Sequence record: OQ885479
DNA from: Escherichia phage SUT_E1520
Strand: one strand, 5' to 3'
Length of the DNA: 64,000 nucleotides
Shown one piece after another: positions 3,657-7,282 of this stretch (its first letter is position 1; each line of letters starts with the position of its first letter). Under the pieces are notes generated by a model. That model was given only the letters and a program-made list of their open reading frames with translations. It did not search any database and was not told the DNA's origin. The translations under genes were made by a program, and so were the position numbers.

Positions 3657-3944
3657 TTGAGGGAGCTGCTGATGCATCCTGAAAACTTCTTTATTTACTG
3701 CGCGGATAAGTTGCTGAAACGTAGAATTAACAAAGTCTATCATTATCGTGCTAGTCAACAGCCTTATGTATACGCTTTTGACGGTGATCACATTCCATTA
3801 GAACAATTATCCTGTGATTACATGATATTGAAGAACTTTGACGAGACAAAGATCTCAAGCGTTCATAATCGACAGAATCCCTTAACGTGGAAATATAAGA
3901 AGAAAAAGAAAGGCATCAAATTTTTAAAAAATGTAGTTGCTTAG
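3657..3944 (+). CDS. hypothetical protein (TTG start per track; first ATG at 3672)
   Basis: ORF track; starts immediately after the tRNA. Confidence 0.4.
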   Translation: MRELLMHPENFFIYCADKLLKRRINKVYHYRASQQPYVYAFDGDHIPLEQLSCDYMILKNFDETKISSVHNRQNPLTWKYKKKKKGIKFLKNVVA

Positions 3945-3965
3945 TTTCCAAAAGTTCTGTATAAT
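3937..3965 (+). promoter_or_regulatory. T5-type early promoter
   Basis: TTGCTT-N17-TATAAT followed by the conserved ATAAATTGAACTGGAGAAG leader. Confidence 0.6.
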
Positions 3966-4012
3966 AATTACATAAATTGAACTGGAGAAGCAACATGACA
4001 GAACAAGATAAA

Positions 4013-4088
4013 TCGACCGTTGGCTGAATGGCTTAGGCGAAGGATTGCAAATCCTTTTTATGTGAGTTCAAATCTCATGCGGTCGTCC
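4013..4088 (+). tRNA. tRNA-Cys (GCA)
   Basis: Acceptor CGACCGT/GCGGTCG, anticodon arm AAGGA-TTGCAAA-TCCTT, T-loop GTTCAAATC, CCA. Confidence 0.7.
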
Positions 4089-4230
4089 AATTTGCTGAAA
4101 GAGTTGTTAAATCAATTCAGGCACGCGTAGGAACACTGTCTCCGTAATTGAAAGATGAGGCACGGTTTGGAGAGGTATGCCGCTACACGCTACGGTGCTA
4201 ACTCCGTCTAGGTGAAAATCCTAGTCAGCA
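4089..4230 (+). ncRNA. structured non-coding segment (about 140 nt); T-arm-like hairpin with a non-canonical TGAAAAT loop
   Basis: No ORF; closing helix TTGCTGA / TCAGCAA; CTAGG-TGAAAAT-CCTAG hairpin; does not fold as a standard tRNA. Confidence 0.3.
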
Positions 4231-4241
4231 ATATAAATTTA

Positions 4242-4324
4242 GGGTCGTTAGCCAAGCGGTTTGGCGGTGGACTGTTAATCCATGTCGAAAGACAACGTAG
4301 GTTCGAATCCTACACGGCCCGCCA
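4242..4324 (+). tRNA. tRNA, anticodon GUU (Asn type) with an unusually long 13-nt variable region
   Basis: Acceptor GGGTCGT/ACGGCCC, loop CTGTTAA, T-arm GTAGGTTCGAATCCTAC, CCA. Confidence 0.55.
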
Positions 4325-4426
4325 AATTCTGTGTAGAGTTAAGTAAACCGGTAGCCAACCAGCTATCATTGCTGACATCGAATTCAGTCACAGATACCAT
4401 TTTCATTAATAACTGAGGAAACAAGC

Positions 4427-5182: not shown

Positions 5183-5203
5183 AAACAATCAAACATTCTA
5201 GCG

Positions 5204-5316
5204 TGGTTGATGGGGAAACCAGCTTGGCGAGGGCAGAAGCTCGTTCGATTCGAGTGAAAGAATGGTTCTCGTAAGTCCGCACAAGTGATAACAGGTTCGA
5301 GTCCTGTCTAGAATGA
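5204..5316 (+). ncRNA. tRNA-like structured element 2 of 3 (about 112 nt): 8-bp acceptor-like helix, D-arm-like and canonical T-arm, no standard anticodon arm
   Basis: CATTCTAG / CTAGAATG closing helix; TGGTT-GATGGGGAA-ACCA; ACAGG-TTCGAGT-CCTGT. Confidence 0.35.
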
Positions 5317-5327
5317 CACTATAAAGT

Positions 5328-5438
5328 TTACTTATTATGTAGGTTCCGATAGATCGGCGGGTCTATTCTGGCACTTAAGAGAGGTCTCGCAAACTTCTTT
5401 GTCAGCCGTGGGGTTGGTAGCCTCCAGGTGGCCTACAC
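5328..5438 (+). ncRNA. structured non-coding element 3 of 3 (about 110 nt)
   Basis: TACTTATTATGTAGG pairs with CCTACACAATAAGTA; no ORF. Confidence 0.3.
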
Positions 5439-5464
5439 AATAAGTAAATTTATTAAAAATTCAT

Positions 5465-6214: not shown

Positions 6215-6445
6215 TAAATTGATGAGGAGAAATCCTCATCATAGTTCACTAAGGTATTAGCTCGACCTAGGACTGGCTGCCAAAAAGCACGATCCCTACG
6301 ATTCGGGAGAAGTTCTAGATTAGTCCACTAGGTTCAGCGGCAACTGAATAGTGTATCGGGTTTGCGAGATGACGCGGTTCCTTCCGCTTGAAGCGAAGGT
6401 GCTGTAGTTACGCCGAGCTAATAGCCTTAGTAAACTAAAGAATTT
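6215..6445 (+). ncRNA. promoter-proximal structured non-coding RNA candidate (about 230 nt) upstream of tRNA-Ala
   Basis: No ORF or tRNA fold; 9-bp long-range helix ATTAGCTCG (6256-6264) with CGAGCTAAT (6414-6422). Confidence 0.35.
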
Positions 6446-6524
6446 GGGGAATGGGTCTGCATGGAGTGGACACCTCGCTTGCACCGAGGACATCAGAACG
6501 GTTCGATTCCGTTATTCTCCACCA
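6446..6524 (+). tRNA. tRNA-Ala (UGC)
   Basis: Acceptor GGGGAAT/ATTCTCC, anticodon arm CCTCG-CTTGCAC-CGAGG, T-arm AACGGTTCGATTCCGTT, CCA. Confidence 0.65.
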
Positions 6525-6916: not shown

Positions 6917-7062
6917 AATCCTGAAGTATGCCGGAATCGGTAGACGGGGCTGCCTAAAAGGTTTATAGGGAACATCCACTCCCTGCAACATACCTCATAA
7001 AGCGGCTGAGATAAATGGTCTATCTCGTGAAGGTTCAAGTCCTTCTGCTTCTTGATACACCA
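6917..7062 (+). ncRNA. non-coding structured segment containing a T-arm-like hairpin (GAAGG-TTCAAGT-CCTTC); not resolved as a tRNA
   Basis: No ORF; several local hairpins, including GAGATA-AATGGTC-TATCTC. Confidence 0.25.
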
Positions 7063-7282
7063 ATGGCTCAAAGTGTAACGGTGCTATTTGATGCGCTTAG
7101 TAAGACTTCCCCGACATGCGTTCGGGAGTAAGCTGCTAAGACTAGAGTAGAAGAGTTTCTGAGAGCCGCCACAATTGAAAATTCGTACTCGTCTTGAGCT
7201 GCGTGCAATAGGAGATAACTTGATTAGTATTCTAGAACATGCTAATTGAGGAAGGTTTCGCTAACCCTGCGAGTTTTCAATT
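7063..7282 (+). ncRNA. non-coding structured segment with a 13-bp long-range helix
   Basis: CCACAATTGAAAA (7169-7181) pairs with TTTTCAATTGTGG (7273-7285); no ORF, no canonical T-loop. Confidence 0.3.

Follow-up and report, generated by a model that had tools for sequence, protein, structure and literature searches.

A 140-nt element in the tRNA arrays of T5-like phages that is very probably a structured, tRNA-like RNA

Introduction

T5-like phages are model viruses and are widely used as candidates for therapy and biocontrol. In Escherichia phage SUT_E1520 (record OQ885479), two tRNA genes are separated by a gap that is closed by complementary strands and carries a hairpin shaped like the T-arm of a tRNA. 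The question raised by this locus is whether the gap holds the remains of a tRNA, a spacer of the tRNA transcript, or an RNA gene of its own. Non-tRNA RNAs are encoded in the tRNA regions of T5-like phages, and we know of no function assigned to any of them in forty years. Here, the gap is analyzed within a stretch of 64,000 nt of SUT_E1520 (the window) and compared with its counterparts in other phages.

Genomic Setting and Expression Context

The element spans 140 nt on the plus strand (window positions 4092-4231) and occupies the gap between tRNA-Cys and tRNA-Asn. Its ends are formed by the closing strands TTGCTGA (4092-4098) and TCAGCAA (4225-4231), and the hairpin composed of CTAGG (4208-4212), the loop TGAAAAT (4213-4219), and CCTAG (4220-4224) directly abuts the 3' closing strand. 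Both closure and hairpin are present 3' of tRNA-Cys as described in the initial annotation, which also gave the correct length of 140 nt, although its coordinates (4089-4230) were displaced by 1-3 nt at each end. The upstream neighbor, tRNA-Cys (GCA anticodon; 4014-4089, plus strand), has an encoded CCA and ends 2 nt 5' of the element, while the downstream neighbor, tRNA-Asn (GUU; 4242-4324, plus strand), begins 10 nt 3' of it; both genes are found by ARAGORN and Rfam. The 3' flank of the element itself is UAUAAAUUUA, with no CCA. This arrangement is general: in every clade the element begins 2-3 nt after the CCA of a tRNA and stops 7-10 nt before the next one. The identity of the neighbors varies: the window has Cys/Asn and Mydovirus has Ser/Ser, and in phiR2-01 and Shiner the upstream tRNA is Asn.

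The tRNA-Asn of the window is itself unusual, as its 83 nt include a 10-nt insertion at the variable region with respect to the tRNA covariance model. T5 and BF23 have an unrelated tRNA-Asn of 78 nt, and the one that the element follows in phiR2-01 and Shiner measures 76 nt. Two other tRNA genes of the window are seen by one program only: a tRNA at 1778-1852 (Rfam, 40.3 bits), missed by ARAGORN, lies at the position of the tRNA-Ile2 (CAU) of phage 5, and a tRNA-Ala called by ARAGORN at 6446-6524 is not in the Rfam gathering search.

Upstream of tRNA-Cys, a promoter-like site (TTGCTT-17 nt-TATAAT; 3937-3965, plus strand) is found within a stretch homologous to P14b, a promoter annotated in AJ604531 (L002 6407-6481, equivalent to window positions 3917-3991) and likewise in T5 and BF23. 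A simple promoter scan missed the site because its -35 region matches the consensus at just three of six bases. Between this P14b-like promoter and the element, the window scan found no terminator-like site on the plus strand.

The gap had been described as ORF-free, which holds in practice, since the only ORFs touching the element are one of 36 aa with a TTG start and one of 44 aa with a GTG start, both spilling out of the flanking tRNA genes. Some records do carry annotated proteins at this place. In BIS47 (NC_048656; L001 3036-3257), a 73-aa "DNA ligase" CDS on the opposite strand covers the element and the tRNA-Ser downstream of it and is probably a spurious call, and in Roth37 "hypothetical protein" CDSs are annotated over the element.

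Comparative Evidence for a Conserved Fold

The fold derived by comparing clades consists of six helices, all given here on the plus strand. The outermost, P1, is an acceptor-like stem of 7 bp (4092-4098 with 4225-4231), in which four of the seven pairs show compensatory changes and 100% of the cells are paired. The linker AA (4099-4100) separates it from a D-like hairpin (4101-4118) with the stem 4101-4106/4113-4118, five of whose six pairs are compensatory, and the loop UUAAAU (4107-4112), whose positions U16, U17, A19, and A20 are invariant in the alignment. After a linker A, the place of the anticodon arm is taken by a central domain (4120-4199), in which P3 leads to a three-way junction with P4 and P5. 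P3 is a helix of 10 bp (4120-4124 and 4126-4130 with 4190-4194 and 4195-4199) with a bulged G4125, and its two outer pairs have changed on both sides, from C-G to G-C and from A-U to U-G. The P4 hairpin (4138-4161; stem 4138-4142/4157-4161) has three compensatory pairs out of five and a 14-nt loop containing UGAAAG; in Mydovirus the loop is reduced to the 7 nt UGAGAGU, and the motif UGA(A/G)AG is retained across clades. The P5 hairpin (4163-4182) is formed by the stem CGGU/GCCG and a purine-rich loop of 12 nt, UUGGAGAGGUAU, and is followed by the junction strand CUACACG (4183-4189), which is invariant in all clades.

Beyond the central domain, a variable-loop-like linker of 8 nt defined from the alignment, AACUCCGU (4200-4207), leads to the T-like arm (4208-4224), with the 5-bp stem CUAGG/CCUAG and the 7-nt loop UGAAAAU (4213-4219). 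The stem shows one compensatory change, from A-U to U-A, while the loop is invariant, and the arm is contiguous with the 3' strand of P1 (4225-4231). All clades agree in the linkers AA and A and in the 0-nt junction between T-like arm and acceptor-like stem. A candidate pseudoknot between GGAG (4169-4172) and CUCC (4202-4205) shows one compensatory change and one broken pair.

Covariation was evaluated on 13 distinct sequences from three clades, namely Tequintavirus, Epseptimavirus/Sugarlandvirus, and the 75% identical Mydovirus. Standard pairs make up 99.4% of all pair cells, and compensatory changes were counted in 15 of 37 pairs (four in P1, five in the D-like stem, two in P3, three in P4, and one in the T-like stem), with the changes supplied by three clades only and counted on an alignment fitted to the structure model. 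Control structures with partners slid by 1-3 columns pair in only 24-44% of the cells, and the observed covariation score was reached by none of 500 shuffles. There is no variation in P5 or in the inner half of P3 among the 13 sequences, so that covariation neither supports nor contradicts the P5 stem. MAFFT alone misplaces the 5' strand of Mydovirus; RNAalifold, unaided, returns the same structure, P3 included.

Folding of single sequences is less telling. The window element alone has a minimum free energy of -41.3 kcal/mol (z = -2.0 versus shuffles), which is just mildly better than the shuffles, and the case therefore rests on the comparative data. The inner pairs GGCA/UGCC and ACGG/CCGU of this fold are broken in other clades and were rejected in favor of P3. 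When the copies from Mydovirus and Shiner are folded singly by minimum free energy, P1, P3, P4, and both the D-like hairpin and the T-like arm reappear. The strand can also be told from the pairs, since the G-U pairs 29-108 and 75-88 (element numbering) are found in 13 of 13 sequences and, like further G-U pairs, would become C-A on the minus strand, which indicates that the plus strand is the functional one. Taken from sequence comparison, it can be held with high confidence that the element is a functional structured RNA.

The same comparison bears on whether the conserved product might be a peptide. An ORF of 12 codons runs from an ATG at 4177 to a TGA at 4214 (translation MPLHATVLTPSR), it is open in the T5-like and Mydovirus copies, and a GGAG-rich stretch precedes the ATG. 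In phage Shiner the ATG is AAG, and this loss of the start codon led us to reject the ORF. In addition, four codons vary between clades and three of these differences are nonsynonymous, the spacing from the purine stretch to the ATG is only about 1-2 nt, and the ORF lies within covarying helices, which leaves the peptide as scarcely credible.

Relation to tRNAs and tRNA Pseudogenes

The architecture of the element is that of a tRNA up to the anticodon arm. The 7-bp acceptor-like stem, 2 nt, the D-like hairpin, 1 nt, and, at the other end, a T-like arm contiguous with the acceptor follow cloverleaf spacing, and junction spacing and genomic setting are both shared with tRNAs (RF00005), two real tRNAs being weak full-length matches to the covariance model of the element (R1). 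The early description of the element as "tRNA-like" is hence right as regards its architecture: stem, D-like hairpin, and T-like arm, in a tRNA array and on the tRNA strand. The nucleotides that define a tRNA are nonetheless absent, including U8, G18G19, a UUCRA T-loop, a 7-nt anticodon loop on a 5-bp stem, and CCA. The element has instead A8, the D-like loop UUNAAU, the T-like loop UGAAAAU, 80 nt in place of the anticodon arm, and the 3' flank UAUA.

The search programs agree with this. No match between RF00005 and the element was found even at E <= 10 in searches of 149-501 nt, and ARAGORN, in default mode, with thresholds of 60-80%, and in intron and tmRNA modes, made no call with the boundaries of the element. 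At gathering thresholds, the Rfam search of the whole window matched no family to the element, and at E <= 10, with the window and Mydovirus copies alone, only neighboring tRNAs and noise (sR24, HIV-1 SL3) were returned. A tmRNA was considered and discarded, as ARAGORN finds none and pair 3-70 is G-C or A-U, not G3-U70.

A cloverleaf-like layout stripped of tRNA hallmarks, in a segment that is lost, truncated, or damaged in some phages, is what might be expected of a decaying tRNA pseudogene or of a neutral spacer left in the array. Decay is difficult to reconcile with 15 of 37 pairs kept through double changes and 99.4% of cells paired, or with unpaired junction and loop nucleotides that are invariant between clades 75% identical. 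Orthologous positions could also have held an intact canonical tRNA, the finding that the initial annotation had named as evidence for a simple pseudogene; an intact tRNA was found at none of the positions compared, which hold the same element, a 7-nt spacer, or a T5orf172 ORF. The pseudogene reading is thereby largely refuted by covariation and has very little probability left. Of the proposal that the element is "a degenerate or repurposed tRNA", the second half is reasonable, while degeneration does not fit an RNA with covarying helices and an invariant core that moves intact.

A T-Loop of the Riboswitch Class

The loop of the T-like arm had been read as a conserved TTCGA loop that was replaced. 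The replacement is real, the loop being UGAAAAU, although the result is not a broken T-loop: UGAAA plus AU fits the consensus (YGNRA)NY, its Y1-A5 included, and is invariant in all copies. This consensus defines a class of T-loops that is used by FMN and cobalamin riboswitches (bioRxiv 10.1101/2022.12.26.521914). A possible partner lies in P4, whose loop, UGAGAGU in Mydovirus or UGAAAGAU in the T5-likes, fits the T-loop-receptor consensus UNANA + 2. The fit of UGAAAAU, the receptor fit of P4, and the invariant adenines of the D-like loop together make a T-loop-mediated tertiary contact within the element likely as judged from sequence, and the adenines of the D-like loop could intercalate in it.

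These features also suggest a riboswitch-like aptamer that binds a ligand, or an attenuator, acting on the downstream gene. The T-loop consensus and a receptor-like P4 loop with UGA(A/G)AG are held in common with the FMN and cobalamin riboswitch modules, a multi-helix junction is closed by P1, and the hairpin GGUGAAAAUCC is identical in sequence to the T-loop hairpin of the cobalamin riboswitch. The riboswitch modules, in contrast to the element, form an auxiliary helix 3' of the T-like stem, which is impossible here because the nucleotides at that place already pair in P1. No Rfam riboswitch matches the element at E <= 10, neither an expression platform nor a terminator was found downstream, and the next gene is a tRNA, 7-10 nt away, that differs between phages. 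Regulation of this type is thus very unlikely.

A cobalamin riboswitch-like sequence was also seen elsewhere. On an uncultured phage contig of 111 kb, a GGGAAUGCUAGGUGAAAAUCCUAG stretch upstream of a tRNA-Gln (L353 640-730) superficially resembles the core of the cobalamin riboswitch and is unrelated to the element.

Distribution, Gain, and Loss

By blastn, the element segment is found in 219 phage records, most of them with at least 95% identity. The majority belong to Tequintavirus and Epseptimavirus and infect Escherichia, Salmonella, and Shigella. Escherichia phage T5_ev212, EC148, and others match the window at 100% identity here, and the copies of Yersinia phage phiR2-01 and the Klebsiella Sugarlandvirus phages are about 87-91% identical. 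A 75% identical copy occurs in the Klebsiella myoviruses BIS47, VIK251, P8734, KP12, and NDO71 of the genus Mydovirus (Vequintavirinae), where it is also inside a tRNA array; its flanks are unrelated, and similarity ends at the ends of the element. Its presence in a siphovirus family and in a myovirus genus suggests that it has been exchanged and selected as an independent module.

Outside these phages, the searches gave no relatives. No homologue was detected in 5,426 E. coli genomes, a search of GTDB genomes with a 17-mer core gave chance matches only, with no nhmmer support, and one metagenome scan returned five T5-like contigs and nothing else. In viral contigs, two loose gapped patterns retrieved about 240 random loci, none of them confirmed, and a stricter gapped pattern revealed no further clade. 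L354, L353, and L355, which share a 17-mer of the T-arm, were rejected as family members, the site in L354 being at the end of an ORF.

Even among close relatives, the element is not universal. T5 and BF23 are without it, as are many Epseptimaviruses, and an nhmmer search of part of the T5 tRNA region (AY543070, 24,000-38,000) found no copy. TrudiRoth and EscoHU1 have a plain 7-nt Cys-Asn spacer where the element would be, which shows it to be a clean module. In the Cys-Asn gap of T5 and BF23 there is instead a 172-aa ORF, T5.069 or trn 2.8, with MUG113/T5orf172 domains (T5 AY543070 34006-34524, equivalent to L267 1007-1525 on the minus strand; BF23 NC_042564 6749-7267), which overlaps the tRNA-Asn of 78 nt, an allele different from that of the window. 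It looks as if a single locus is occupied either by the element or by this ORF, the one replacing the other possibly through the action of a homing endonuclease.

Partial copies are also found. Salmonella phage NR01 (L012 911-1055) has kept only the 3' ~100 nt of the element; in place of the 5' half there is AT-rich, promoter-like sequence together with the start of an ORF. In the copy of KKP_3822 (L020 604-732), the T-like arm and P3 are disrupted by several small deletions. Absence from T5 and BF23, truncation in NR01, and damage in KKP_3822 indicate that the element is dispensable. As part of the joint best explanation given below, it is probably an accessory gene, gained and lost within the array in the manner of a tRNA module.

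That the locus is a swap point, with a T5orf172/MUG113 ORF and another tRNA-Asn allele in T5 and BF23, could be taken to mean that selection acts on the DNA itself, as a target of a homing endonuclease or a recombination site; a transcript of the minus strand was weighed together with this. The compensatory changes, however, preserve RNA helices and not a DNA sequence, and the G-U pairs would be mismatched as C-A on the minus strand, so that both options are highly improbable.

Relatives Among Phage and Bacterial Small RNAs

The closest parallels come from the classical phages. GenBank records of T5, BF23, and phage 5 (AY543070, NC_042564, and AJ604531) list RNA1 (144 nt), RNA2 (125 nt), and RNA3 (73 nt) as "tRNA-like stable RNAs with unknown functions". 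They have in common with the element the tRNA region, the strand, a setting between tRNAs, a similar size, and an acceptor-like closing stem with a T-arm and an expanded or altered middle. They differ in the T-loop, which is the canonical GGUUCRAnUCC in RNA1 and RNA2 and UGAAAAU in the element, and in the 3' end, with CCA in RNA3 and none in the element, which is also set apart by its three-way-junction core. No significant similarity to T5 RNA1, RNA2, RNA3, RNAI, RNAIII, RNAIV, or RNA2H was found by nhmmer.

Comparable RNAs exist in T4, where species 1 (rnaC) and species 2 (rnaD) measure 139 and 119 nt and are thus of about the same size as the element, with no sequence match to it. Both are small stable RNAs from the end of the tRNA cluster with a tRNA-like 3' part, and to our knowledge they are still without an assigned function. 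Unlike the element, rnaC has a canonical UUCGAAU T-loop. A cmsearch of the T5 and T4 regions with model R1, rnaC and rnaD included, gave no match. Bacterial YrlA Y RNAs are a further case, as they are non-coding tRNA mimics with a tRNA-like module, although their ends sit in the Ro-binding stem and not in an acceptor-like stem. The tRNA-like module is shared with the element, which has no Rfam match and shows no link to Ro60.

Given its location in the tRNA cluster on the tRNA strand and its acceptor-like stem with a T-arm, all of which it shares with T5 RNA1-3 and the T4 RNAs, the element is best read, by analogy, as a tRNA-like small RNA of phage tRNA clusters of the same kind. It also appears to be undescribed. 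The curated phage 5 record AJ604531, which annotates RNA1, RNA2, RNA3, RNAI, RNAIII, RNAIV, RNA2H, and RNAX, contains the element at L002 6582-6721 with the gap left unannotated, and full-text literature searches returned no description of it. Its omission from the classical catalogues is explained by the fact that T5 and BF23, on which they are based, are without it.

The window also carries seven of the non-tRNA RNAs annotated in T5, at 86-99% identity: RNA3 (4327-4399), RNA2 (5194-5318), RNAIV (5337-5439), RNA2H (6255-6426), RNA1 (6927-7064), RNAI (7065-7171), and RNAIII (7176-7281). GenBank labels them "stable" or "tRNA-like", "with unknown functions", and at gathering thresholds these seven match no Rfam family.

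Other tRNA-like genes turned up in phage contigs. On the minus strand of the uncultured viral contig IMGVR_UViG_3300032312_001269 (L333 4181-4248), a cloverleaf-like RNA of 64 nt followed by UCCA begins 6 nt after a tRNA-Gly, and ARAGORN makes no call for it. An uninterrupted run of 21 nt, UGUCUUGGUGAAAAUCCAAGU, is identical between this RNA and the Mydovirus copy; its fold has z = -3.6, and it may be a short relative of the element. A second gene (L335 9467-9542), called by ARAGORN as "tRNA-???" with the four-base anticodon CUCU, recurs in some ten contigs of uncultured phages, which are 5-296 kb long and almost all 44 kb or more (also L336-L339, L341-L343, L351, and L352). In the L335-type gene, the T-arm reads CUUGG-UGAAAAU-CCAAG, the D-loop contains GG, and ACCA is encoded. 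Together, the L333 and L335 genes hint at a wider class of tRNA-like genes with a UGAAAAU loop in phage tRNA arrays, the likeness being that of the T-arm. Finally, in Klebsiella phage Shiner (L022, about 750-818), a segment of ~70 nt closed by UUAGGG/CCCUAA directly follows the element and precedes a tRNA-Cys; no tRNA is called there, and L006 and L316 have this sequence after the element as well.

Possible Biogenesis and Function

In the explanation preferred here, to which we assign a probability of roughly 0.6, the element is a gene for a structured non-coding RNA of 140 nt built on a tRNA frame, transcribed from P14b, excised by RNase P, and offering a binding surface in trans. P14b would drive a precursor containing tRNA-Cys, the element, and tRNA-Asn. 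RNase P works by measuring the acceptor/T-arm stack and not by reading sequence (PMC4919913), and the stack of 7 + 5 bp in the element, placed 2 nt past the upstream CCA, would allow this enzyme to cut and probably to generate the 5' end. For the 3' end, RNase P would cut at the downstream tRNA and a 3' exonuclease would then trim the product, releasing a stable RNA of ~140 nt in the way supposed for T5 RNA1-3 and T4 species 1 and 2. The contact of the T-loop with its receptor may hold the fold together, and the invariant junction and loops would probably be the working part, by our guess a surface to which a tRNA-handling factor of the host or the phage binds. Confidence in the processing route is medium, and in any specific function it is low.

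Several observations weigh against this explanation. RNase P excision and the role in trans are steps that we infer, the elbow nucleotides G19-C56 on which RNase P stacks are absent from the element, and there is no encoded CCA, unlike in the neighboring tRNAs, T5 RNA I, and RNA3. The element is dispensable, as seen in T5, BF23, NR01, and KKP_3822, and the covariation comes from three clades in a model-fitted alignment, with P5 and inner P3 invariant.

Part of these observations would suit a module acting only in cis, such as a folded spacer directing the cuts of RNase E or RNase P, that would serve to process or stabilize the polycistronic tRNA transcript, with no function for the free RNA. 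The element is always located between tRNAs with very short spacers, lacks CCA, and has no detectable target. Against this, arrays without the element work with a 7-nt spacer, its sequence is kept while its neighbors change, and a length of 140 nt, an invariant core, and six helices that covary or are invariant far exceed the needs of a spacer. A role restricted to cis is accordingly unlikely.

The free RNA of the preferred explanation could also have a more defined task. T5-like tRNA regions counter host defenses directed at tRNAs, and a passage of PMC10644984, citing others, gives the rescue of retron Eco7 toxicity by T5 tRNA-Tyr as an example. A tRNA mimic excised by the tRNA machinery might capture a host factor, or the elbow of a tRNA, with its T-loop, P4 loop, and junction, and act as a decoy or sponge. 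The captured factor could be a tRNA-cleaving defense nuclease of the kind countered by T5 tRNAs, which would make the element a possible decoy against tRNA-directed host defenses. As a specific proposal, this is decidedly tentative and rather improbable.

Concluding Remarks

For the structured RNA gene favored here, a functional test would be simple, since carriers and non-carriers are nearly isogenic at the locus. The element adds to the tRNA regions of T5-like phages a well-supported and apparently undescribed RNA family, for which a covariance model, a structure open to testing, and natural variants with and without the element are available.
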